Shown here: piece by piece, positions 5,299-28,338 of the stretch
Position numbering within the stretch: position 1 is the first letter of the stretch
Layout: each line of letters opens with the position of its first letter
Source: Saprospiraceae bacterium
GTDB lineage: Bacteria; Bacteroidota; Bacteroidia; Chitinophagales; Saprospiraceae
Assembly (NCBI GenBank): GCA_043748865.1
Contig: JAYTNA010000065.1
Location: 1 to 40,720 of the forward strand
DNA length: 40,720 bases
Direction of reading: 5' to 3'
The notes under the pieces: model-generated
Told to the model about the DNA's origin: nothing
The model's database searches: none
The model's input: the letters and a program-made list of their open reading frames with translations, nothing else
Made by a program: the position numbers and the translations under genes

Positions 5299-5367
5299 GT
5301 CATATTTTTTAGCTTCCCTTTGTTGTTTCTTTTTTGTGAATACAAAAATTTCGAGTGCAAAGGTTCT

Positions 5368-5545
5368 CTAAAAAAATCCAAATAAAAAAATAAAAATTTT
5401 TTTTAAAACAAAATAATTTTTATTTAAGAAAAAAAATAAAAAAAGTTTTTTGAAAAAATTGTTTTCTAAAAAAAATCCGGTAAAAAAATAAATTCTTTTT
5501 TAAAATAAAATTATTTTATTTAAAAAAAAAAATTAAAAAAAATCC
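5368..5545. repeat. Extreme A/T-tract block containing a roughly 98-bp tandem duplication, in the topA upstream region
   Basis: Two near-identical units start at 5368 and 5466 (ctaaaaaaatcc... and ctaaaaaaaatcc...). A third aaaaaaaatccc start lies near 5535. The block is almost entirely A/T, made of phased A-runs and T-runs. Confidence 0.7.
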
Positions 5546-5564: not shown

Positions 5565-5604
5565 CTCACACAAACAAACACTTTATTGAAAACTCTATGC
5601 CTTT

Positions 5605-5700
5605 ACAATTGACAATTTGCAATGAAAAAAAATTGTCAATTCTATATTATCAACTGTCCGTTGCAATTGTCAATTATCCATTGTCCATTATCAACTAACC
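5605..5700. repeat. Heptamer-word hairpin or tract element at the 3' end of the glucosaminidase gene
   Basis: Perfect 11-bp inverted repeat aattgacaatt (5607-5617) / aattgtcaatt (5631-5641). A 7-nt periodic tract follows at 5651-5700 (caactgt ccgttgc aattgtc aattatc cattgtc cattatc) and runs into the CDS stop. Confidence 0.6.
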
Positions 5701-7647: not shown

Positions 7648-7734
7648 TGGTTATTGGTTATCGGTTATTAGTTATTGGTTACACATTTTTAAATGGATAA
7701 TCAATTAACCAATAACCGATAACCAATAACCATT
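7646..7734. repeat. Heptamer-word hairpin (ggttatt family) after the kinase gene; archetype of the family
   Basis: Left arm aatggttattggttatcggttatt(agttatt)ggtta starts inside the TAA stop. Right arm ttaaccaataaccgataaccaataaccatt spans 7705-7734. The stem is about 24 bp and perfect; the left arm carries one extra heptamer. Confidence 0.85.
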
Positions 7735-10592: not shown

Positions 10593-13500
10593 ATGGAATT
10601 CAAATCCAACTTGAATTTAAAGGGAATAATAGTAAGTGTACTATTTCTCTTTCTCGGTCTCGTGTCAGGTTTTGCGCAACGTACCGTCACCGGTACGATT
10701 AGCGGAACAGACGGACCGATTATCGGTGCGAGTATCGTTGTAAAAGGTACAACAAGTGGTACCGTGACCGACGAAAACGGTAATTTTTCTTTAACAACTA
10801 AAGAAAGTAATCCGACACTCATTGTTTCTGCATTGAGTTATTCGACACAACAAATTGTAGTAGACGGCGCAACATCTGCTTACAATGTTTCTATGAAAGA
10901 AGACATTTCTCAACTCAGTGAGGTCGTCGTATCAGGTTACTACAACGAAACTAAACGCCAAACTACGGGTTCGGTATCTACAGTCAAATCGAAAGATTTA
11001 ACTGCTGTACCAACAAGTAACGTTGAGCAACAATTACAAGGTAAAGTTGCGGGTGTGACGGTAATCACAAGTGGTCAACCCGGTTCTTCAAGTATTATTC
11101 GTGTACGCGGTTTCGGTTCATTTGGTGGTAACAGTCCACTTTTTGTAGTGGATGGAGTACCCACCGGTAACATAGATTTTTTAAATCCGGACGATATTGA
11201 GTCAACAACTGTATTAAAAGATGCGGGTGCTGCTTCTATTTACGGTGTACGTTCCGCACCGGGTGTAATTGTATTCACGACTAAACACGCGAAAAAATCG
11301 GAGCGTAAATTATCTGTCTCCTATGACGCTATTTTCGGTGTCACTTCTCCCGGTACTGCACCCGGTATTTTAAATCCGCAAGAACAAGCAGATTGGACTT
11401 TTATTGCACAAAAAAATGCGGGTCAAGTACCAAGCCATCCGCAATATGGTTCAGGTGCTACTGCCGTATTACCGGATTATATTAATGTAGGCGGAAGATC
11501 AGGTGTTATAGGTACAGTTGATTTGGCTGCCGAGAAATTGAAATACAATGTTGATCCTGCAGCCGGTGCAGCATATCAAGTTGTAAAAGCGAATAAAGCG
11601 GGTACTGACTGGTATGGTGCTGTTACGCGCAACGCACCTATAATGCGCCAAAACCTTGGTTTTTCCGGTGCTACCGAAAGCAGCCGTTACTATATTGGTT
11701 TGGGCATGCAAAACCAAGCGGGTATTTTATTGAATAACGATTTTAGTCGTTATAATGCGCGCATCAATACCGAATTTGACATTTTTAAAGGTTTCCGTAT
11801 CGGTGAAAATTTGCAATTGACATACCTTAATGCTTCAGGACAAACCGGTGGCAGTGGTGGTATTGGTGCTGCGGGTGAAGAAAATGATATTCTATCAGCT
11901 TTCCGTATGCCTTCTATCATTCCGATTTACGATGAATTTGGTGGTTATGCAGGAACGGCTGCGAAAGGGTTTAACAACCCAAGAAATCCGGTGGCTGCTC
12001 GTGATGGGCTTAAAAACAATTCTCAATATTCCATCAATACTTTCGGTAATATTTATGCTGAACTCGATATCCTTCCCGGATTAACGCTACGCACAAGTAT
12101 GGGTGGCAGACATTACGATTTCGCCTATAATGGTACATCGCGTTTATCTTATGAAAACTCTGAAAACAATTCAAGTTTCGGTGTTTTCGAAGGTGCAGGA
12201 CATGGAACGGACTGGGTATTAACCAATACCGCAAATTACAAGAAAACATTCGGTGTTCATACTTTTGATGTTTTGGTGGGTCAAGAAGCCATAACTCAAA
12301 ATATTAGCAGATCTATTGCAGGTAACGGTATAAATCCGTTTTCAACCGATAATGTTTATGTAACGCTCAATACAGTATCCTCAGTTGGTAAAACGGTTGG
12401 CAGTAATTTATCCACGCCTTATACTTTTTCTTCATTCTTTGGACGTATTAATTACGGTTTTAACGATAAATATTATTTAACGGCTTTAGTACGTCGCGAC
12501 GGTTCCTCAGTTTTCGGTCCGGATACGCGTTACGGTATATTTCCGGCATTCTCTGCGGCTTGGCGCGTAACGGGCGAAGATTTTGCAAAAAACAGCTCTT
12601 GGTTGTCTGATCTTAAAATTCGCGGCGGTTGGGGTAGAATGGGTAATATAAACAATACTTCACCAACTAATCAATACAGTTTGTATGCTCAAAGTGTCGG
12701 TAATTCGTCTTATGATATTAACGGTTCAAAAACAAGTGCGACGGGTGGTTTCTATAGAAATGCTATTGGTAATCCGAATGGTAAATGGGAAACTGCTACG
12801 ACTACAAACATAGGTTTTGATGCGTCTCTTTTCAAAAATAAATTAGAAGTTATTTTTGATTTGTGGCAAAAACAAACGGACGACTTGCTTTTCCAAGTTG
12901 GCATTCCGGATGTGGTAGGTAGTTATGCTAATGCTCCTTCTGTTAATATTGCTACGATGTTGAATAAAGGTGTAGATATTCAAATCATCAATCGCGGTAA
13001 CATTGCAAAAGATTGGAGCTACGAAGCAAATTTAACAGCCGGTTTATTAGAAAATACAATTACAAAAGAAGCACCGCCTCAAACTTATTTTGATGCCGGC
13101 GGTACGCGAAACGGAAATGCGATACGTAATGCAGTTGGTCAAGGATTATCTACTTTCTTTGGTTATCAAGTTCAAAGTATTTTCCAATCAAAAGCAGAAG
13201 TGGATGCAGCACCGGCACAATCCGGCAAAGGCGTTGGTCGTTTTAGATATGCCGATGTAAATGGTGACGGCGTAATTGATGATAAAGACCGTACTTTCAT
13301 TGGCAGCCCTATACCTAAATTTTTAGGGGGATTGAATTTGAAATTAACTTTTAAAGATGTTTCAATAGAAACATACCTCTACACGTCCTTAGGTAATAAA
13401 ATTTATAATTTCTCTAAATGGTTCACGGATTTTTACGCTACATTCCCGGGTGCAGCAATTAGTTCTCGCGTTAAAACGGATACTTGGACGCCTACTAATA

Positions 13501-13817: not shown

Positions 13818-13922
13818 AAGAATTAAAAAATTTAAAACATTTTTATTCTTAATTCTTAAATTGTTTCTTTTATGTCAACTATTTTGATTTTATTTTGTTT
13901 GAAATCAAATTATCAGTAATAA

Positions 13923-14000
13923 ATTAGTCAATTAGTCGGATAGTCAGTTAGTGAAATTGTGAGTTAATTTATTTTGACTAACTGACTAACCGACTAATTG
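13923..14000. repeat. Heptamer-word hairpin (tagtcag family) between susC-like and susD-like genes
   Basis: Left arm attagtcaattagtcggatagtcagttagt; right arm gactaaactgactaaccgactaatt. The arms are largely complementary, with a loop of about 23 nt. Confidence 0.8.
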
Positions 14001-14042
14001 GCTAAAAAAATTTTCTTAAAATTTTTTAATAATTATTCATCA

Positions 14043-15788: not shown

Positions 15789-15790
15789 TT

Positions 15791-15877
15791 TAATGGTTAA
15801 TGGTTAATGGTTAGTTGTTAATTTTTATAATTAACCGGTAACCATTAACAACTAACCATTATAAAAGACTTTTTTTC
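15791..15877 (+). repeat. Heptamer-word hairpin (taatggt/tagttgt family) with a following T-run; probable susD terminator
   Basis: Left arm taatggttaatggttaatggttagttgttaat (15791-15822). Right arm attaaccggtaaccattaacaactaaccatta (15830-15861). Then ...gacttttttt. Confidence 0.8.
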
Positions 15878-15907: not shown

Positions 15908-16072
15908 TAATAGTTGTTAGTTGTTAGTTGTTAGTTGTTAATTTTATTATTGACTATTAATAATTATTCATTAAGAATTATTCATTGTTTGCCTTTTTTT
16001 ATTTCATAAAGTTTAATTTTACGGTTTCAAGAGAAAATTATTTCGACTCACAATTAATAACTAACAACTATT
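15908..16072. repeat. Tandem heptamer (tagttgt x4) with a distant inverted partner abutting the adh start codon
   Basis: tagttgt x4 occupies 15911-15938. The complementary attaataactaacaactatt occupies 16053-16072 and ends one nt before the ATG at 16073. Confidence 0.7.
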
Positions 16073-17118: not shown

Positions 17119-21021
<3,903 letters not shown>

Positions 21022-21131
21022 TTTTTTAAGGATATTGAGATAAAAAACAGCAAGGAATAAACCGGAATATTTTAAATTGATAACTTAATTATACACTCTC
21101 GTAATTTTTCCTAACATCAAATACAAAGAGA

Positions 21132-22187
21132 TCAAATCAAATTATACCAAGTGCCTTTCCCGATACCATTTCGTTGAATTTGATTATTTTTCACTAAACT
21201 TTCAAGGTGTTTTCGTAAGGTATTTCGATTATATTGTGTGAAAGTTGCCAATTCACTTATCGTAATGCGCCCATTTTCACGAATTAAATCCACAATTGTT
21301 TGCGACATATCCGGCAGTTGCGTTAGCAAAAGGCGTTCTCGTTTTATCTTAATATCTAAATTATCTTTTTGACGTTTCAGCGATTTTAGAAAAAACAAAA
21401 CCCACGGCGACCAATTGGGTTCGTCCTGATTGAGTGTTGTTTGAGTTTGGCGCAATGATCGGTAATATTCGGGCTTCTCCCGTTCAATCACCGCTTCAAG
21501 AGAACTGTATGCTACATAACGATAACCCGCTTTTAGCAATAAAAAAGTCGTCAAAACTCTTGAAAGCCGTCCATTCCCATCTTGAAAAGGATGAATTGCC
21601 AAAAAACTAACCGTAAAAAAAGCAATAATCAATAAAGGATGCCAGTCTCTTTTTTTCAGATTTTCGACTGCCCAATCCACTAATTCTTGCATTTTTATTG
21701 GTGTTTCCAAAGGTGTCGTTGTTTCAAAAACGACCCCAACAACTTGACCAAAAGGATCTGTTGCGACCACATGATTCGGGAATTTTTTATATTGTCCTTT
21801 ATGCCATTGGTCTTTTTCACTATACTTCATCAGGTAGTCGTGTAGCTGTTGAATGAAATTTTCAGACAATGGAATATCATTATAATTATCAAAAACTATC
21901 GTCATCAAATCTGCATATCCTGCCACTTCTTGCTCGTCTCGGGTTTCAAATTTTTGAATTTTGAGATCGGCAATCAATTTTTCTACTTGTTGGTCAGTCA
22001 ATAAACTGCCTTCGATACGGGTACTTGATGCAATACTTTCTATCGTTGCTACTTTTCTAAGTTGCAACAATCTGTCGGGTGCGATATTGCCTAAAGCCAA
22101 CCACGCTCCTTTAAATTCGTCAATTTCTGTCATCAGATTGACGATTTGTTTTGTCAATATCAAAAATTCTGTTTTTACCATACGCAC
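21132..22187 (-). CDS. Fic/DOC-family protein (putative AMPylase) with an N-terminal inhibitory motif and a C-terminal winged-helix domain
   Basis: Canonical Fic motif HPFQDGNGRLSR (aa 199-210, nt 21558-21593). S-x-x-x-E-G inhibitory-helix motif STRIEG (aa 55-60). C-terminal HTH-like region (ISELATFTQYNRNTLRKHLESLV). Confidence 0.92.
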   Translation of the reverse strand: MRMVKTEFLILTKQIVNLMTEIDEFKGAWLALGNIAPDRLLQLRKVATIESIASSTRIEGSLLTDQQVEKLIADLKIQKFETRDEQEVAGYADLMTIVFDNYNDIPLSENFIQQLHDYLMKYSEKDQWHKGQYKKFPNHVVATDPFGQVVGVVFETTTPLETPIKMQELVDWAVENLKKRDWHPLLIIAFFTVSFLAIHPFQDGNGRLSRVLTTFLLLKAGYRYVAYSSLEAVIEREKPEYYRSLRQTQTTLNQDEPNWSPWVLFFLKSLKRQKDNLDIKIKRERLLLTQLPDMSQTIVDLIRENGRITISELATFTQYNRNTLRKHLESLVKNNQIQRNGIGKGTWYNLI

Positions 22188-22326
22188 ATTTTATCCAAAA
22201 GTACGCATAAAAATCATGTCAACCTAATAAAAGCCTTTAAACCTTATTTTTTATCTAAAAATGTATCCGTAAATACGCATAAATTATTTGAAAGTATAAA
22301 ATCATGCTAAAATACCGTACTTTTGC

Positions 22327-22410
22327 AAAAAAAAATCGTGCGGAAAAATTTTTTTTTCTGCGCGATTTTTTTTTATTTTTTCCGAAAAAATTTTTTTTTA
22401 TCGCACCGCA
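22327..22410. repeat. A-run/T-run palindromes with short GC cores in the fic / DUF418 divergent intergenic region
   Basis: aaaaatcgtgcgg (22331-22343) pairs with ctgcgcgattttt (22358-22370), allowing two G-T wobbles. Similar tccgaaaaaa/ttttttttta/tcgcaccgc blocks follow. Confidence 0.5.
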
Positions 22411-22569
22411 AATAAATATTTTCGGACGGTAGTTTTTTCTTCAATATTTTTTATAATTTTGACAATGGCTTGGGAAGACGGAATACTAATTCACACCTGT
22501 AGCAAGCCCTGTTCGTTATCGGTCATTGTAAAGCAAACCTTAAACTAAAAATAAATTCATATCAAAGAC

Positions 22570-23784
22570 ATGCAAAATCTTACAATAAAAAGAATTGAAC
22601 AAATTGACGCATTACGAGGCTTTGCATTATTTGGTATAATAATGACACATATGTTTGAAGGCTATTTGGCAAGTATGACACTGCCTCAATATATGGGATT
22701 TAATATTCTATACCCTATAGACAGTTTTTCACAAGTTGTAATTCAAAACCTGTTTGTCGGAAAATTTTATGCAATATTCTCAATGTTATTTGGACTAAGT
22801 TTCTATTTAATATTAGACCAGAAAAAAGGCTCAAGTTCTTTGAAATTTATCTGGAGATTAGTGTTGTTATTTCTCATTGGCTTTATTCACCATGTACATT
22901 ATAGAGGTGATTTTTTGACCGTTTATGCGGTCTTTGGTTTTGCATTAGTGCTTTTCAGAAAAGTTCCTAATAAAATCATTTTGATTCTTGGGCTTTTTCT
23001 TGCTTTCAACGGGCCTTCTATAATAACGAATTCTATCTCATTAATTCAAAAATCAAGGCAGGATACAGTCCAAGTTATAAAAGAAACTAAAATCATACCT
23101 TTCGATAATTCAGCAGATAATCCTGTTACACAGGCAACTGCTTATTTTGATTTGATACTTAAAGGTGAATACCGAAAATTGCTTGTGTCTAATAGCACTA
23201 CCGGCTTTTACAATAAATACAATTACCTAAAATTTAGTGGCAGACTATGGGTTATTCCGGGATTGTTCTTGTTAGGACTTTGGATAGGTCGTAAAAAATG
23301 GCACGAACAAATAGACAAGATTCCATTGGTTAAAATAATTTCTTTTTCAGCTTTAATAGGTATACCGTTGATAATAATAAGTTATTATTTTTCACTACCA
23401 ACCAATACCGGATTTATTCGTTATGTTGGCTCTATTGCCAAAGATGCTTCCAATATTTTTATGCCTCTTTTATATATCACTATTTTACTTTCTCTTTTCA
23501 AACTAAGTAGCACAAATAAAATCGTCAGTCAATTGATCCCGGTAGGTAAAATGGGACTTACAACCTATGCGTTACAGTCTGCTTTTGGCATTTTTATATT
23601 TTATGGCTATGGACTTGGACTTTTATTAAAATTATCAGGAACTGCGGCACTTGGACTTGGATTGCTATTTTTTCTTTTACAAATAGTCTTTAGTAAGTGG
23701 TGGTTCAGCAAGTATAAGTTTGGTCCATTGGAGTGGCTTTGGAGGAGTGGGACAAATGGAAGCTGGCAAACTATAAAACTATGA
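22570..23784 (+). CDS. DUF418-domain integral membrane protein (YeiB-like)
   Basis: RIEQIDALRGFALFGII start, multiple hydrophobic helices, and the C-terminal GPLEWLWRS motif characteristic of DUF418. Confidence 0.85.
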   Translation: MQNLTIKRIEQIDALRGFALFGIIMTHMFEGYLASMTLPQYMGFNILYPIDSFSQVVIQNLFVGKFYAIFSMLFGLSFYLILDQKKGSSSLKFIWRLVLLFLIGFIHHVHYRGDFLTVYAVFGFALVLFRKVPNKIILILGLFLAFNGPSIITNSISLIQKSRQDTVQVIKETKIIPFDNSADNPVTQATAYFDLILKGEYRKLLVSNSTTGFYNKYNYLKFSGRLWVIPGLFLLGLWIGRKKWHEQIDKIPLVKIISFSALIGIPLIIISYYFSLPTNTGFIRYVGSIAKDASNIFMPLLYITILLSLFKLSSTNKIVSQLIPVGKMGLTTYALQSAFGIFIFYGYGLGLLLKLSGTAALGLGLLFFLLQIVFSKWWFSKYKFGPLEWLWRSGTNGSWQTIKL

Positions 23785-23957
23785 ATGATTGCGACATATT
23801 ATTCTTGCAACACGAAAAAGATACATGCACGCCCTCATAATCACATCTTTTAATAATTTTTTTTACAAAGATAGCATATTTTTTGCGTTATTTGTGTGTG
23901 CTTGGTAATAAAATGATACTATGCGTACTGAAATATCAATGCCGAAATAAAAAAATC

Positions 23958-25367
23958 ATGAGATACACATTTATATTTTTTTTGCTCCTAATTGCTCTCG
24001 CTTGTAAAGATACCAAACCCAAACCGGTTGTCGTCTTAAAACCTGACGTAGAGTATTTGCATGATGCCGAACAAAAACTCACCGACATCATCATCACCGA
24101 TATTTTCAATCCGCCGGTAGCGAGTCGCGTTTATGTGTATCCGCTTTTGGCAGCATATGAAGCGGGAAGATTTTCTTCAGCTATCAGCTATCAACTATCA
24201 GCTATCAGTAATCAATCGTCAGGTGGTAACAAAAACCATAAAGCTGATAGCTTAAAGCTGATAGCTGATAGCTATTCTTCTATCACTAATCAACTCAAAG
24301 GTTTTGATAAAATGCCGACACCCGAAGCGGGAAAAGATTATGATTATACTGTTGCTTCCATCAAAGCATTTTGTACAGTTGCACCGAAAGTTATTTTTTC
24401 AGTTAAAGTTATTGCCGATTTTGAAACACAAACCTTAAATGTACTCAAAACGCGCTCGACGGATGAAGTTTATAACCGCTCTGTCGCTTTCGGTCAACAA
24501 GTGGCGGATGTAATCATAAAACGATTAAGTATTGATAATTACAAAGAAACACGCGGTATGTCGCGCTTTGAAGTAAAAAATGATATTCCCGGTCGTTGGG
24601 TGCCGACGACGCCGGATTATGCGGATGGTATAGAAGCACATTGGGGAAAAATGAAAACGTTGGTAATGGATTCTGCATCGCAATGCAAACCGCCGCCGCC
24701 GCCTGCTTACAGTGAAGATAAAATGAGTGCGTTTTGGAAAGAGACGCAAGAAGTTTACAACATCAGTAAAACAATGACAGATGAGCAAGAAAATATCATT
24801 TCTTTTTGGGATGATAATCCGTTTGTTTCTCGACATAAAGGGCATTTGATGTTTCAAGATAAAAAAATGACGCCGGGCGGGCATTGGTTGGCGATAGCTC
24901 GATTGTTTTTAAAAGAAAAAAATGCCGATTTCTATACTTCTTTGAAAACTTACGCGCTCACATCCGTTGTACTTTATGAAGGTTTTATCAGTTGTTGGGA
25001 TGAAAAATATCGCAATCCTTGCGTGAGACCGGAAACTGTTATCAGTGCAAAAATAGATAGACAGTGGCATCCGAATTTAGTAACGCCGGCATTTCCTTCT
25101 TATACTTCCGGACACAGTACGATTTCTGCATCGGCGGCAGAAGTTTTGACTGCTTTGTTCGGCGATAATCAAAAATTTACGGATACAACAGAAAAAGAAT
25201 TTGGTTTGCCTGTTCGCTCTTTTACTTCCTTTCGCCAAGCGGCGAGAGAAGCGTCTATCAGCCGCGTTTATGCGGGTATTCATTTTCGTTCCGATTGTGA
25301 CAAAGGCAATGAACAAGGAAAAAAAGTGGGACAGTTAATCAATTCCAAATTACAAATTACGAATTAG
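23958..25367 (+). CDS. PAP2-superfamily / vanadium-dependent haloperoxidase-like lipoprotein
   Basis: Starting at the internal Met gives MRYTFIFFLLLIALAC, a lipoprotein signal. PAP2 motifs PSYTSGHS and SRVYAGIHFRSD are in the C-terminal part. The track start at 23883 adds a Cys-rich non-signal leader. Confidence 0.85.
   Translation: MRYTFIFFLLLIALACKDTKPKPVVVLKPDVEYLHDAEQKLTDIIITDIFNPPVASRVYVYPLLAAYEAGRFSSAISYQLSAISNQSSGGNKNHKADSLKLIADSYSSITNQLKGFDKMPTPEAGKDYDYTVASIKAFCTVAPKVIFSVKVIADFETQTLNVLKTRSTDEVYNRSVAFGQQVADVIIKRLSIDNYKETRGMSRFEVKNDIPGRWVPTTPDYADGIEAHWGKMKTLVMDSASQCKPPPPPAYSEDKMSAFWKETQEVYNISKTMTDEQENIISFWDDNPFVSRHKGHLMFQDKKMTPGGHWLAIARLFLKEKNADFYTSLKTYALTSVVLYEGFISCWDEKYRNPCVRPETVISAKIDRQWHPNLVTPAFPSYTSGHSTISASAAEVLTALFGDNQKFTDTTEKEFGLPVRSFTSFRQAAREASISRVYAGIHFRSDCDKGNEQGKKVGQLINSKLQITN
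24179..24274. repeat. 96-nt heptamer-word hairpin (cagctat family) in frame inside the haloperoxidase-like CDS
   Basis: Left arm agctatc agctatc aactatc agctatc agtaatc. Right arm aagctgatagcttaaagctgatagctgatagct. The outer 14 nt are perfectly complementary. Flanked by ttcttc at 24173-24178 and 24275-24280, which are 102 nt (34 codons) apart. Confidence 0.85.
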
Positions 25368-25407
25368 GAATGATGATTTTCAAACCGTAAATCGTAATTA
25401 TTTTTTT
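25347..25407 (+). repeat. Heptamer-word hairpin plus T-run at the 3' end of the haloperoxidase-like gene (probable terminator)
   Basis: Left arm aaattac aaattac gaatta lies inside the last codons (KLQITN stop). Right arm cgtaaatcgtaatt spans 25386-25399 and is followed by ttttttt. Confidence 0.6.
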
Positions 25408-25636
25408 CTCGTTGTCGTACAATTCAACCAAATACCATTTTTACAAGCAGAATTGGGTGAAGTAATATGCGATGTGAGAGAAGTAACACCATGTGTTTGA
25501 ATACTGTGTTGTAAACGATATTTTGCTGCTTCAATTATTAGGCAGAGAAACAGAAAAATTAATTGATTCTCGCTCATCAAAACAAATTTAAACTTTTCAA
25601 TAAAACTTTTTTGTTACCGAATTCGTTTTTTGTGAT

Positions 25637-26707
25637 ATGGATAATAAAGAATTGGCAAGTGCAAACAATCTTTCCGGCGAAATCGTTTGGAAAAGTCCGG
25701 CTAATATTGCGATTGTAAAATATTGGGGAAAATATGGCGTACAGTTACCGCGCAATCCGAATATCAGTTTTACTTTGCAAAAAGCTGTAACTAAAATGAT
25801 GTTACATTATTCTCAAAAGAAAAACTTAACCGATAATAATATTAGTTTAAAGTTTGAGTTCAGCGAAGCAGATAAATCCGAAAAATTCAGACAAAAAATG
25901 ATGGCTTTTATGTCTTCTGTTTTGAATGAATTTCCGTTCTTGACGCAGTTAGATATGCGTATCGAATCGGAAAATTCATTTCCGCACTCGGCGGGTATTG
26001 CATCGTCGGCATCGAGTATGAGCGCTTTAGCATTGTGTCTTTGTTCTTTGGAATGTCGGTTGAAAGGGAAATTAAAAGAAAATTCGCCGGCATTTTTTAA
26101 ACGCGCCTCATACATTGCGCGCTTAGCTTCCGGCAGTGCGTGTCGTTCCATTTATTCGGGTATGGCATTGTGGGGAAAAATGAAAGAAGTGAAAGGCAGT
26201 TCTAATATGTTCGCGATTGATTTTAACGCGCACATTCACCCGGTTTTTAAAACTTATCATGATGCGATTTTAATTGTGAGTACTGCCGAGAAAAATATTT
26301 CGAGTCGTATGGGGCATGGTTTGATGAATAATAATGCTTACGCTGCACCGCGTTACAAACAAGCGCATGAACGTATGACCGCACTTTTAGAAATTTTAAA
26401 ATCCGGTGACACACATGCTTTCGGACAAATTGCGGAAGATGAAGCGATGACTTTGCACGCTCTGATGATGACGAGTTCACCTTCATTCACTTTGCTAAAA
26501 CCAAATACCCTAAATATGATAGAAGTTTTGCGCGAATGGCGACAACAAACAAACATTCCCGCTTATTTCAGTTTAGATGCCGGTCCGAATTTGCATTTAC
26601 TTTATCCTGATGAATTTGCAGAGCAAACCAAAACATTTATCGAAACAGCATTAAAACCGTTTTGTGAAGGTGGAATGATAATTTATGATAAGGTAGCTGA
26701 TAATTAA
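25637..26707 (+). CDS. mvaD: Diphosphomevalonate decarboxylase (GHMP kinase family, mevalonate pathway)
   Basis: SPANIAIVKYWGK...NPNISFTL N-terminal signature and the FPHSAGIASSASSMSALA GHMP motif. Confidence 0.9.
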   Translation: MDNKELASANNLSGEIVWKSPANIAIVKYWGKYGVQLPRNPNISFTLQKAVTKMMLHYSQKKNLTDNNISLKFEFSEADKSEKFRQKMMAFMSSVLNEFPFLTQLDMRIESENSFPHSAGIASSASSMSALALCLCSLECRLKGKLKENSPAFFKRASYIARLASGSACRSIYSGMALWGKMKEVKGSSNMFAIDFNAHIHPVFKTYHDAILIVSTAEKNISSRMGHGLMNNNAYAAPRYKQAHERMTALLEILKSGDTHAFGQIAEDEAMTLHALMMTSSPSFTLLKPNTLNMIEVLREWRQQTNIPAYFSLDAGPNLHLLYPDEFAEQTKTFIETALKPFCEGGMIIYDKVADN

Positions 26708-27432: not shown

Positions 27433-27468
27433 GTCAGTGAGTCTATTGTCCATTGTCAACTGTCAATT
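27433..27468. repeat. Heptamer tract (attgtcc/attgtca family) overlapping the MBL hydrolase stop codon
   Basis: gtcagtgagtctattgtccattgtcaactgtcaatt uses the same words as the tract at 5651-5700. Confidence 0.6.
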
Positions 27469-28274: not shown

Positions 28275-28338
28275 ATTTTGGATTTTGGATTTTATCTGCG
28301 TATAAATTGAAAAAATTTAAAATCCAAAATCCAAAATC
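28275..28338. repeat. Heptamer-word hairpin (ttggatt family) 6 nt upstream of the recN start
   Basis: Arms attttggattttggatttt (28275-28293) and aaaatccaaaatccaaaatc (28319-28338) are nearly perfectly complementary, with a 25-nt loop. Confidence 0.85.

Follow-up and report, generated by a model that had tools for sequence, protein, structure and literature searches.

A heptanucleotide-repeat hairpin in frame within a haloperoxidase-like gene of a Saprospiraceae bacterium: probable local origin in an insertion-tolerant loop

How does a long palindrome come to lie in frame inside the gene for a conserved enzyme, between two identical hexamers? The question is raised by a 40,720-nt stretch of DNA from a Saprospiraceae bacterium (assembly GCA_043748865.1, contig JAYTNA010000065.1; the whole stretch is called the window here), in which a strong imperfect hairpin of 95 nt (24179-24273) lies in frame within a haloperoxidase-like gene (Table 1). 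A preliminary description took the hairpin for an inserted palindromic element with a duplicated target site and likened it to the palindromic elements of Rickettsia. Our analysis points elsewhere: the segment is probably a heptanucleotide-repeat hairpin that formed and lengthened in place, within a linker tolerant of insertions, in a lineage that makes and remodels such hairpins. Studies over several decades have recorded heptanucleotide repeats, and the hairpins that they build, in cyanobacteria (STRR sequences, the P6b region of the trnL intron) and in Beggiatoaceae; we know of no accepted mechanism for them.

The hairpin itself, given earlier as 96 nt long (24179-24274), is real; by direct reading it begins agctatc agctatc aactatc agctatc agtaatc ... 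aagctgatagcttaaagctgatagctgatagct. Read in the frame of the gene, the segment between the TTCTTC hexamers encodes SSAISYQLSAISNQSSGGNKNHKADSLKLIADSY. RNA folding of the hairpin gave a minimum free energy of −46.3 kcal/mol compared with −20.5 ± 3.0 kcal/mol for 200 shuffled sequences (z = −8.5), none of which equaled it; the two arms pair with each other and a small stem forms at the apex. Both arms consist of tandem heptamers, (AGCTATC)n on the left and (GATAGCT)n on the right, and Tandem Repeats Finder (TRF) reports a period-7 array in each, although the perfect repeat run amounts to only about two units per arm. In TCA phase, the left arm reads as seven degenerate units (24177-24225). The single interruption of the right arm, GCTTAAAGC, is shared by the window and a relative that carries a homologous insert (L001). 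An Rfam search at a permissive threshold found no family for the hairpin; its subthreshold matches were plant microRNA-precursor hairpins, which we rejected. A simple terminator scan did not flag it, but this is uninformative because the scan is blind to stems with long loops. In a protein search, the insert peptide (41 aa) yielded 13 word-sharing candidates, none with E ≤ 10.

Table 1. Coordinates of the in-gene hairpin, its host gene, and other heptamer-built elements of the window
Feature	Coordinates	Strand	Description and basis
Host gene: predicted vanadium-dependent haloperoxidase (iodoperoxidase-like), PAP2-superfamily lipoprotein	23958..25367	+	469 aa, intact; ORF and translation, Pfam PAP2 match
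Left TTCTTC hexamer	24173..24178	+	Codons of F-S-S; direct reading
Left arm	24179..24209	+	AGCTATC AGCTATC AACTATC AGCTATC AGT; fold; TRF period 7, 4.6 copies
Apical region	24210..24242	+	5-bp stem, 24223-24227 with 24235-24239; fold
Right arm	24243..24273	+	(GATAGCT)n with one interruption; fold, TRF period 7
Stop-avoiding codons TTA AAG	24252..24257	+	TGA TAG expected if the array were perfect or the arm fully complementary to the left one
Right TTCTTC hexamer	24275..24280	+	Codons of Y-S-S; direct reading
Second in-gene heptamer hairpin	19147..19274	+	(GATATTG)n ... (ACCTAAT)n, inside FG-GAP/ASPIC gene 17248-21021; folds
Intergenic heptamer hairpin	15790..15861	+	(TTAATGG)n/(ATTAACC)n, directly 3′ of SusD-like stop codon
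Heptamer array (TAGTTGT)4	15911..15990	+	Within terminator-like stem GAGGCAAGCAAT...ATTGTTTGCCTTTTTTT
Intergenic hairpin of 8-mers	13922..14005	+	(AATTAGTC)n/(GACTAAYT)n
Intergenic hairpin	7648..7732	+	(TGGTTAT)5/(ATAACCA)5, directly 3′ of stop codon; −48 kcal/mol
Intergenic hairpin	28275..28338	+	(ATTTTGG)n/(AAAATCC)n; kept in L002
Heptamer hairpin over host-gene stop codon	25341..25400	+	(AATTACR)n/(CGTAATT)n; L003 version longer

The arms differ in their coding potential. The left arm translates as SAISYQLSAIS, and its heptamer unit is free of stops in all three reading frames. The right arm translates as ADSLKLIADS; when the actual arm and an idealized one were translated, the TTA AAG codons accounted for the two mismatches between the arms, which keep the frame open and form the internal loop of the hairpin.

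The host protein, first described simply as haloperoxidase-like, can be refined to vanadium-dependent iodoperoxidase-like: it is 42% identical to 4CIT/4USZ (Foldseek E = 1e-26; phmmer E = 1e-117) and has about 6000 homologues, the nearest named ones being from Saprospiraceae. All invariant columns of the catalytic motifs are present (K350, R357, P358, S384-G385-H386, S435-R436, H442, and D446). With the motifs KX6RP, PSGH, and SRX5HX3D and the vanadium-dependent haloperoxidase fold, the protein is predicted from its sequence to be an enzyme of this class.

The loop that holds the insert has 13 residues in all 64 measured insert-free orthologues, compared with 42 in the window. Across the 75 measured orthologues, loop lengths were 13 (64 proteins), 14 (3 proteins), 18 (2 proteins), 25 (3 proteins), 26, 35, and 36 residues, so the in-frame segment is missing from most orthologues, as the preliminary description anticipated. 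Its figure of 34 inserted codons needs correction, however: relative to the 13-residue loop of the 64 orthologues, the net gain is 29 codons (87 nt). In 4CIT the insert would fall between chain residues 76 and 81, where there are about four residues, and in an AlphaFold2 model of the host the segment is a low-confidence protrusion (pLDDT 54-69). The insertion site is most likely an insertion-tolerant linker between two helices of the lipoprotein. The 29 added residues would most likely lie on the protein surface as a neutral passenger.

About ten heptamer-built hairpins with differing units are found in the window, most of them just 3′ of genes and a few inside genes. Arrays of period 7 number 11, compared with none of period 5, 6, 8, 9, or 10 and 0.04 in Markov resamples; a double-heptamer pattern had 13 matches in the window versus 0.07 expected. 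The elements that start at 19147, 15790, 15911, 13922, 7648, and 28275 are of the same class as the haloperoxidase hairpin.

This excess of heptamer arrays is specific to the lineage. A syntenic relative (L002; 94% identical DNA) has nine period-7 arrays in 15.8 kb, whereas 39 metagenome loci encoding relatives of the host protein (39-69% identical; about 480 kb, mostly of similar G+C) have two in total, and the closer relatives L004 and L125 have none. The 39 loci came from a metagenome scan for host-protein relatives, which returned proteins at most 69% identical, and were used as a negative control for heptamer richness. The heptamer-hairpin lineage is probably a genus within Saprospiraceae, and its tendency to make and remodel such hairpins is most likely genome-wide.

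Between close relatives, the hairpin sites are fixed and their sequences hypervariable relative to the flanks: 8 of 14 repeat segments show 21-78% identity to the relative, whereas their own flanks (±60 nt) are 62-95% identical and the remainder of the alignment 94.3%. Without a change of site, one unit is exchanged wholesale for another, TAGTTGT for TAATGGT and ATTCATC for ATTTTTC, with all units of an array changing in concert, and the intergenic hairpins are still hairpins in the relative, with 5 to 10 compensatory pairs. Directly 3′ of the SusD-like gene, for example, relative L003 has (TTGACAA/TTGATAA)n with (TTGTCAA/TTATCAA)n between ±60-nt flanks that are ∼95% identical; at the 15911 array it has (TAATGGT)4, and its right arm there, (AACAACT)3, complements the TAGTTGT unit of the window. 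The hairpin of 8-mers is 62% identical to its L003 counterpart (flanks, 95%), with five compensatory pairs, and the L003 counterpart of the second in-gene hairpin has a more perfect left arm, (GGGTATT)3, and folds at −46 kcal/mol. Unit numbers also differ between relatives (the haloperoxidase insert compared with L001, the post-SusD hairpin, and the hairpin at 25341); in the array at 20758-20799, the unit sequence changed at constant length. Wholesale replacement of units between well-conserved flanks is hard to obtain by slippage alone.

The haloperoxidase loop has a history of its own. The BLAST alignment of the window with L003 (∼92%) breaks exactly at 24175/24279; L003 lacks the hairpin and has a +12-aa architecture like that of the outgroups. 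In L004 and L125 the insert adds 12 aa and consists of degenerate TCAGCAG arrays; the apical region of the window hairpin looks homologous to the 3′ part of this insert (GTGGTAACAAAAACCATAA versus GTGGCAAGGCAAAACTTAA in an alignment read by eye). The hairpin and its stop-removing substitutions are common to the window and L001 (∼80% nucleotide identity), in which the hairpin is decayed. Because it is present in L001 but absent from the closer L003, L003 would have to have undergone replacement, or a short patch would have to have passed between lineages; a recombination-tract test of the window against L001 around the insert found higher identity only across the right arm and the native bases just after it (∼60 alignment columns), which is within noise. 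Judged from these sequences, the in-gene hairpin is evolutionarily transient: L001 has a decayed version, and in the closest relative it is missing or another sequence has taken its place. A 60%-identical relative (L126) carries a heptamer hairpin of its own at this loop, in which (GAGTTGA)n pairs with (TCAACTC)n and the fold reaches −40.5 kcal/mol; its first unit, GAGTGGA, corresponds to native K-S-G codons, and it is an independent second case in the haloperoxidase loop. Different inserts in different lineages at one site, including an independent heptamer hairpin, fit recurrent local generation.

The heptamer of the window hairpin is itself widespread: (AGCTATC)3 occurs at no fewer than 120 loci spread over many phyla, with examples in Moorena, Trichodesmium, Vibrio, and Pseudoalteromonas, and AGCTATC arrays are also present on a GC-rich Gemmatimonadaceae contig. 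One locus (L117) was considered as a second in-gene hairpin of this unit and rejected; it lies between genes, high G+C accounts for its open frames, and no frame of its right arm is free of stops. Because AGCTATC arrays occur in so many phyla, something more specific than random local slippage is hinted at.

The flanking hexamers lie where they were first described, 102 nt apart. Only 0.14% of random placements give such a match with strict adjacency and 1.2% with lenient adjacency; the match is probably not due to chance, though its meaning differs from that first proposed, and because of this rarity a mechanism that leaves short direct repeats may apply. The right TTCTTC is the start of the native stretch TTCTTCTATCACTAATCAACTC (SSITNQL), itself similar to the left arm, TTCTTC..CTATCAGTAATCAATCG; local alignment of the left arm with the native downstream codons scored 14.5 (P = 0.0015 when compared with shuffled sequences, 0.005 when compared with real segments of the window). 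The hexamer is the head of this longer, degenerate direct similarity. A target-site duplication is not supported: removing 96 + 6 nt (the exact empty site would read ...GATTTTCTTCTATCAC...) leaves an 8-residue loop, while none of the 75 measured orthologues has fewer than 13 residues, and the homologous insert of L001 has TTCATC, not TTCTTC, on its right side. Nor does the duplication recur, as direct repeats of 6 nt or more flank none of 10 other heptamer hairpins, two other in-gene ones included.

These results bear on the proposal that a miniature palindromic mobile element, similar to Rickettsia palindromic elements (RPEs) or MITEs, inserted in frame and duplicated a 6-nt TTCTTC target. 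Such an event would account for the hexamers that bound the hairpin almost exactly, for the many orthologues without an insert, and for its place in a permissive linker. RPEs, said to have been described by Ogata et al. in 2000, are likewise palindromic segments of ∼100 nt that lie in frame in conserved genes, where they lengthen the protein by a peptide at a permissive position and leave the gene intact. Mobile elements linked to heptameric repeats were reportedly proposed in Nostoc by Elhai et al. in 2008, with small dispersed repeats nested in heptamer arrays. We nevertheless consider a mobile element unlikely at this site. The 40.7-kb window contains no second copy, although copies could exist elsewhere in the genome; in ∼1.3 Mb of fetched loci, the 94%-identical relative included, there were no matches of 40 nt or more, the hairpin loop yielded a single 13-nt word at chance level, and bare heptamer arrays are all that these loci share with the element. 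Its interior resembles the adjacent native sequence, and its arms are tandem repeats of a kind whose units vary among hairpins. No transposase gene was noticed in the list of (unannotated) ORFs of the window. RPEs (mentioned in PMC10969869 and PMC1779305) form dispersed families of many similar copies with a consensus, whereas we found no other copy of this hairpin and no shared consensus; its arms are heptamer tandems and its host taxon is unrelated. Of the earlier comparison with RPEs, what still stands is the effect on the protein, which resembles that of an RPE in a coding sequence: an in-frame, hairpin-forming segment that most orthologues lack. The window hairpins share with MITEs and REP/REPIN sequences a small, hairpin-forming, noncoding character, many members of the class being intergenic, but they lack terminal inverted repeats around a unique core, a recurrent target-site duplication, and sequence conserved between copies; from direct reading there are no GTAG/CGTC-type heads as in REPs, and no associated transposase was identified. 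Integron attC sites, REP/RAYT systems, a CRISPR array, and a diversity-generating retroelement were also rejected, given the tandem-heptamer arms, the lack of conserved cores, and the syntenic, housekeeping-type neighbors.

Local origin of a heptanucleotide-repeat hairpin, the reading we favor, can be laid out in four steps, whose order we infer along with a mechanism of slippage and template switching. An ancestor of the clade would have gained a short, degenerate TCAGCWG-type heptamer array that added 12 aa after residues FS. In the lineage of the window and L001, this array would then have been expanded and homogenized by slippage in the 7-nt register. An inverted copy of the array may have been added 3′ of it, by intrastrand or fork template switching or by short-patch conversion, overwriting about five native codons and leaving a degenerate direct repeat of which TTCTTC would be the best-preserved part. 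Finally, stop-free variants alone would have survived, the TAGCTGA-sense arm having acquired just those two substitutions by which TGA TAG is lost.

Alternatively, a dedicated, lineage-specific system might write, convert, or replace heptamer-hairpin cassettes at defined sites, with the in-gene hairpin as a product made off target or tolerated. A templated polymerase could do so, as could a nuclease or recombinase specific for hairpins or single strands. Such hairpins occur in the window lineage but hardly at all in the other fetched loci that encode relatives of the host protein, most of similar G+C; whole cassettes are exchanged and their units change in concert between ∼95%-identical flanks; a given type of unit is met again at other loci and in neighboring hairpins; and one heptamer, AGCTATC, forms arrays in many phyla. 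Whole P6b regions of Nostoc are replaced in an analogous way, repeatedly and without explanation (PMC4476775). However, we identified no candidate gene, repeated contraction and reexpansion by slippage can also yield concerted change, selection for termination can maintain hairpins, and the comparison covers two genomes of the lineage; we regard such a system as rather doubtful. A further possibility is that the hairpin is functional in this gene. It could act as a regulatory RNA (through translational pausing, RNase III cleavage, or premature termination) or as a contingency locus that switches frame by one 7-nt unit, since the transcript would have a stem of high stability (−46 kcal/mol) with AUUCUUCU after it, 7 nt is not a multiple of 3 so that slippage by a single unit would shift the frame, and heptamer repeats have been discussed as phase-variation devices (PMC4679880). 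A function of either kind seems highly unlikely in view of the decay of the hairpin in L001 and its absence from L003, the runs of about two perfect units per arm, which are short for frequent slippage, and the lack of an Rfam family. Palindromes are also typical sites of assembly or sequencing artifacts such as fold-back chimeras, and an identical partial protein (P0003, from a 1127-nt contig) lacks the residues upstream of the hairpin, as if its assembly had ended at or downstream of it. An artifact is nonetheless extremely improbable: a homologous insert whose right arm is the same is found in L001, an independent assembly; the reading frame is unbroken, with stops specifically avoided; and the window shares many similar hairpins with the independent assemblies L002 and L003.

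The closest known counterparts are heptanucleotide simple-sequence repeats (SSRs) and the P6b stem-loop of the Nostoc trnL intron. In the tRNA-Leu(UAA) group I intron of Nostoc, P6b is a stem-loop of 7-nt repeats (Class I, TDNGATT; Class II, NNTGAGT) that has repeatedly been replaced whole by a different motif among close relatives (PMC4476775, PMC3488679). Like the haloperoxidase hairpin, P6b has arms of degenerate, mutually pairing 7-nt repeats and occupies a fixed site inside a functional gene; its length varies by whole units, as that of the present hairpins may do. Whole-region motif replacement has its parallel at the post-SusD, 15911, and haloperoxidase sites when the window is compared with L003, and by our own reading the window hairpin at 28275, as (TTGGATT)n, fits the Class I motif. 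Unlike P6b, which belongs to Cyanobacteria and forms a stem within the fold of a noncoding intron RNA, the haloperoxidase hairpin is in Bacteroidota, is translated, has one arm that shed its stop codons, and is not conserved in its gene.

As for SSRs, heptanucleotide units are the commonest class of long SSRs in most genomes surveyed, with polymerase slippage as the proposed cause, according to the account of Mrazek (2007) given in PMC4679880. TAACTGA repeats occur in Beggiatoaceae, Cyanobacteria, and some Bacteroidetes (MacGregor 2015, PMC4679880). The window resembles genomes with long 7-nt SSRs, including cyanobacterial STRR and TAACTGA repeats, in the strong overrepresentation of heptamers relative to other unit lengths; as with those repeats, its arrays are mostly intergenic and near gene ends, and those in ORFs have only the stop-free orientation. 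Its unit TAGCTGA/TCAGCTA is one base off TAACTGA; in MacGregor's table this unit yields LIADS and SAISYQL (PMC4679880), and both peptides are seen in the insert. STRR and TAACTGA-type repeats, however, are mainly described as direct arrays (among the 170 of BOGUAY, one set is inverted), whereas in the window paired inverted arrays that form long hairpins are the rule, many units occur within 40 kb, and one hairpin lies wholly inside a conserved enzyme gene. Tandem repeats of Borgs, which create new disordered protein segments (PMC9879509), are similar in arising de novo and locally in ORFs, in adding a low-complexity peptide, and in changing fast between relatives; their in-gene repeats are direct, with units that are multiples of 3 nt, in contrast to the 7-nt units of the present hairpin, whose three frames are read in turn and whose arrays are arranged as a palindrome.

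The heptamer-hairpin phenomenon thus extends to a lineage of Bacteroidota whose near relatives lack such arrays. The window provides clear evidence that heptamer hairpins can get into the coding sequence of a conserved enzyme and be retained there, with two independent cases in one loop and further in-gene hairpins in a neighboring gene, and the signature expected of selection is visible in the repair of stop codons on the arm that bears them. Noncoding repeat dynamics thereby offer a concrete route to new protein segments. On a practical level, a heptamer-hairpin insert can pass for a mobile element flanked by a target-site duplication. The window and GCA_043732145.1 (94% identity) make a pair of genomes close enough for cassette swaps to be watched between well-conserved flanks. 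We tentatively entertain the possibility that this lineage of Saprospiraceae, and by extension heptamer-rich Nostocales, Moorena, and Beggiatoaceae, carries an active mechanism that generates and overwrites 7-nt-repeat hairpins at defined sites. If so, the in-gene cases would be the same process inventing peptide segments of enzymes, with selection merely removing the stops, and this pair of genomes would be a tractable system for the puzzle of heptanucleotide repeats and P6b replacement.

The TTCTTC hexamers at 24173-24178 and 24275-24280 lie 102 nt apart and enclose an imperfect palindrome of 95 to 96 nt, which is translated in the frame of the 469-codon haloperoxidase-like gene (23958-25367, + strand) as SSAISYQLSAISNQSSGGNKNHKADSLKLIADSY; the sequence thus reads as the preliminary description had it. 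The arms are tandem heptamer arrays with a small apical stem folded between them. RNA folding of 24165-24290 gave −46.3 kcal/mol; 200 dinucleotide shuffles gave −20.5 ± 3.0 (z = −8.5), and not one of them folded as well. The window contains the double heptamer pattern 13 times versus 0.07 expected. While (AGCTATC)n has no stop codon in any of the three frames, (GATAGCT)n has TGA TAG once per three units in every frame. At 24252-24257 in the right arm, where a perfect array or the complement of the left arm would give TGA TAG, the codons are TTA AAG, and the two changes involved also give the hairpin its internal loop. Selection on the reading frame against stop codons, taken jointly with a local origin of the hairpin, is the best explanation, and we hold it with somewhat better than even confidence.

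Coordinates of the hairpin arms, other repeat hairpins, and neighboring genes in the window
Feature	Position	Strand	Remark
Hairpin left arm	24179-24209	+	fold; tandem heptamer (AGCTATC)n
Hairpin right arm	24243-24273	+	fold; tandem heptamer (GATAGCT)n
Hairpin, unit TGGTTAT	7648-7732		
Hairpin, 8-mer AATTAGTC	13922-14005		
Hairpin, unit TTAATGG	15790-15861		directly after SusD-like gene
Hairpin, unit TAGTTGT	15911-15990		
Hairpin, GATATTG/ACCTAAT	19147-19274		128 nt, in FG-GAP/ASPIC reading frame
Hairpin, unit AATTACG	25341-25400		(AATTACR)n/(CGTAATT)n
Hairpin, unit ATTTTGG	28275-28338		
Gene with Fic-type motif HPFQDGNGR	21132-22187	minus	
Multi-pass membrane protein gene	22570-23784		

The host protein has a PAP2 Pfam match and ~6000 homologues, the nearest named being [quoted passage not shown] The Zobellia vanadium-dependent iodoperoxidase 4USZ/4CIT is matched both by the AlphaFold2 model of the protein (pLDDT 78.7, pTM 0.82; E = 1e-26, 42% identity) and by its sequence (E = 1e-117). 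All invariant catalytic-motif columns are kept, so the gene looks functional. Among the 120 best homologues, the loop that carries the hairpin could be measured, from the AAYEAG motif to the LKGF motif, in 75: it has 13 residues in 64 (for example, KFS-KPDAP-SITAQ) and 14 (three proteins), 18 (two), 25 (three), 26, 35, or 36 in the remainder. The window loop has 42. Most homologues therefore lack the insert, as anticipated, but the net excess is 29 residues (87 nt) rather than 34 codons. Query residues 70-102 have no counterpart in the solved structure, where their place is between chain residues 76 and 81; the model shows them as a pair of short helices at low confidence (pLDDT 54-69). Homologous proteins have different inserts in the same loop (P0001, +12; P0002, +23; P0004, +12; P0005, +12; P0007, +5; P0019, +5; P0021, +13; P0064, +22), and the loop is an insertion hot spot.

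A syntenic relative, known from two independent assemblies (L002, GCA_043732145.1; L003, an ENA metagenome), shares 94.3% DNA identity with the window outside repeats. Its alignment (L003) breaks exactly at 24175/24279, where an unrelated 52 nt, encoding MKIKEVNVESSPPPPAQ, take the place of ~103 nt of the window. That segment includes a 14-nt exact copy (CCGCCGCCACCTGC) of a polyproline-coding stretch that lies 470 nt further downstream in this gene (L003 10253-10266 and 10685-10698; E = 0.2 in that small search); templated repair may have left it, or it may be chance. The related gene of L001 (~80% nucleotide identity) has a homologous insert with a nearly identical right arm, including GCTTAAAGC, a decayed left arm, and TTCATC as right flank. 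In L004 and L125 (~75 to 80%), the +12-aa insert is a degenerate (TCAGCAG)n array, whose 3′ part, as we read the alignment, matches up with the apical region of the hairpin in the window. The L001 insert and these degenerate arrays argue for a history in which an older heptamer array grew and was remodeled. At one step, the hairpin would have been replaced in L003, or else a short patch would have passed between the lineages of the window and of L001; a recombination tract between these two was not detectable around the insert. The 60%-identical protein P0064 (L126, GCA_965192945.1) represents an independent second case: a few residues further along the loop, L126 5254-5340 forms an in-frame hairpin (GAGTGGA GAGTTGA GAATTGA GAGTGGA ... 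TTCTCAA TCCTCAA CTCTCAA TCCTCAA, i.e., (GAGTTGA)n/(TCAACTC)n; −40.5 kcal/mol). Its first unit corresponds to native K-S-G codons, which points to seeding from local sequence.

The preliminary description had taken TTCTTC for a target-site-duplication-like scar and the hairpin for an insertion like the Rickettsia palindromic elements. The hexamer match is indeed rare by chance (0.14% under strict rules, 1.2% under lenient rules). Target-site duplication is disfavored because the empty site it predicts, an 8-residue loop, occurs in none of the 75 measured homologues; because none of 10 other hairpins of the heptamer class has a flanking repeat of ≥6 nt; and because similarity extends past the hexamer, left-arm CTATCAGTAATCAA (AISNQ) resembling native downstream CTATCACTAATCAA (SITNQ; p = 0.0015 to 0.005). 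The most plausible reading of TTCTTC is that it belongs to a degenerate duplicate of native codons, of which it is the best-preserved portion. In ~1.3 Mb of fetched DNA, the loop of the hairpin was unmatched beyond one 13-nt chance-level word, and no match of ≥40 nt to the element was found; the hairpin does not appear to be a member of a dispersed family. The mobile-element reading finds partial support as to consequences and none as to mechanism: the likeness to the Rickettsia elements is one of outcome only, a palindrome translated in frame within a protein.

By one fixed criterion, the window contains 11 period-7 tandem arrays, compared with 0.04 in first-order Markov resamples, and none of period 5, 6, 8, 9, or 10. 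Many pair with an inverted array into long hairpins, each with its own unit; the majority of the heptamer hairpins lie directly 3′ of stop codons, and several lie within genes. L002 has 9 period-7 arrays in 15.8 kb, whereas 39 metagenome loci encoding haloperoxidase relatives (39 to 69% identical, ~480 kb, mostly of similar G+C) have 2 in total and the closer relatives L004 and L125 none; heptamer-array richness is therefore specific to the window lineage. An AATTGTC/TTGACAA unit family occurs at three loci of the lineage (window 5602-5694 and 27441-27468; L003 4712-4830), and AATGGTT recurs at window 15790 and 35791 and at L003 4874, which suggests a limited unit repertoire or copying between loci. 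An A/T-rich 97-nt unit is tandemly duplicated (1.8 copies; TRF score 263) at 5363-5541, in the intergenic region beside a heptamer hairpin.

The sites of these repeats are fixed and their content changes fast: 8 of 14 repeat segments are 21 to 78% identical between the window and its relative, versus 62 to 95% for the ±60-nt flanks and 94.3% for the rest of the alignment. Directly after the SusD-like gene, between flanks (±60 nt) of ~95% identity, the window has (TTAATGG)n/(ATTAACC)n and L003 has (TTGACAA/TTGATAA)n with (TTGTCAA/TTATCAA)n. At the next hairpin, the four units all differ in concert (TAGTTGT in the window, TAATGGT in L003), and the L003 right arm, (AACAACT)3, complements the left arm of the window rather than its own. 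The intergenic hairpins are still hairpins in both genomes, with 5 to 10 compensatory pairs. Within the FG-GAP gene, (ATTCATC)4.6 corresponds to (ATTTTTC)5 in L003, and the perfect (TCAGCAA)6 at 20758-20799 to an equal-length degenerate TCAGCYR array.

The first of these arrays (window 17319-17350, L003 6276-6310) encodes the hydrophobic core of the FG-GAP/ASPIC lipoprotein signal peptide, RFIIHHSSFII from (ATTCATC)4.6 and FFIFHFSFFI from (TTTTCAT)5, each unit differing at two constant positions. The gene also has a perfect (AGCTCAA)5 at 18886-18920; gain or loss of one unit there or in (TCAGCAA)6 would shift the frame, a possible on/off switch. In L004, the 20758-20799 array reads YQLSAIS, the unit family of the haloperoxidase hairpin. 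L003 also has the in-frame FG-GAP/ASPIC hairpin, and its left arm is closer to perfect there (−46 kcal/mol); the BLAST alignment to L004 is interrupted at the hairpin segment. The haloperoxidase stop codon and last residues lie inside the AATTACG hairpin, which is longer in L003 (~11340-11440), where the C terminus is ...RNTF instead of ...QITN. Gene content differs nearby as well. The ~2.9 kb at 21022-23957, two genes between the FG-GAP and haloperoxidase genes, looks like a lineage-specific insertion, the flanking genes being adjacent in L002 and L003 (5702 to 5734). L003 and L002 have ~450 bases that the window lacks, with a called ORF of 63 aa, separating the haloperoxidase gene from the mevalonate-decarboxylase-like gene (window 25400-25640 versus L003 11440-12120).

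Among scanned genome contigs, bare (AGCTATC)3 or longer occurs at no fewer than 120 loci (L005-L124) in many phyla; the matches listed include Moorena and Trichodesmium (cyanobacteria), Chitinophagales, "Ca. Opimibacter," Gemmatimonadota, Chloroflexota, Planctomycetota, Acidobacteriota, Vibrio, and Pseudoalteromonas. Among these listed matches there are 338 period-7 arrays, with 98 different units, versus 5 to 13 for each other period. Of 129 listed AGCTATC-unit arrays, 17 fall within long open frames, each of them in the AGCTATC sense, and for 30 an inverted partner lies no more than 250 nt away; none of the partnered arrays is convincingly inside a gene, which makes a heptamer hairpin within a gene the unusual configuration. 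One GC-rich Gemmatimonadaceae contig (L117, 169-345) has a 180-nt hairpin with AT-rich AGCTATC-type arms. Some of the taxa (Moorena, Pseudoalteromonas) are also among those reported for TAACTGA/LSVISYQ.

Heptanucleotide units are, according to Mrazek 2007 as cited in PMC4679880, the commonest class of long simple sequence repeats in most genomes surveyed, and a 7-nt polymerase contact favoring slippage is the cause proposed there. TAACTGA repeats are documented in Beggiatoaceae, cyanobacteria, and a few Bacteroidetes, and TAGCTGA is tabulated as encoding LIADS and SAISYQL (PMC4679880). The window hairpin has its closest analogue in P6b, a stem-loop of the Nostoc trnL intron whose repeats follow one or the other of two 7-nt motifs and which has undergone repeated replacement of the whole region by an unknown mechanism (PMC4476775, PMC3488679). 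We favor, with reasonable though far from full confidence, a heptanucleotide-repeat hairpin that was generated and remodeled locally, in a linker permissive enough to tolerate it, with stop codons filtered out. That a dedicated system writes or replaces heptamer hairpins is rather unlikely, at perhaps one chance in four or five; if true, it would be the interesting outcome.
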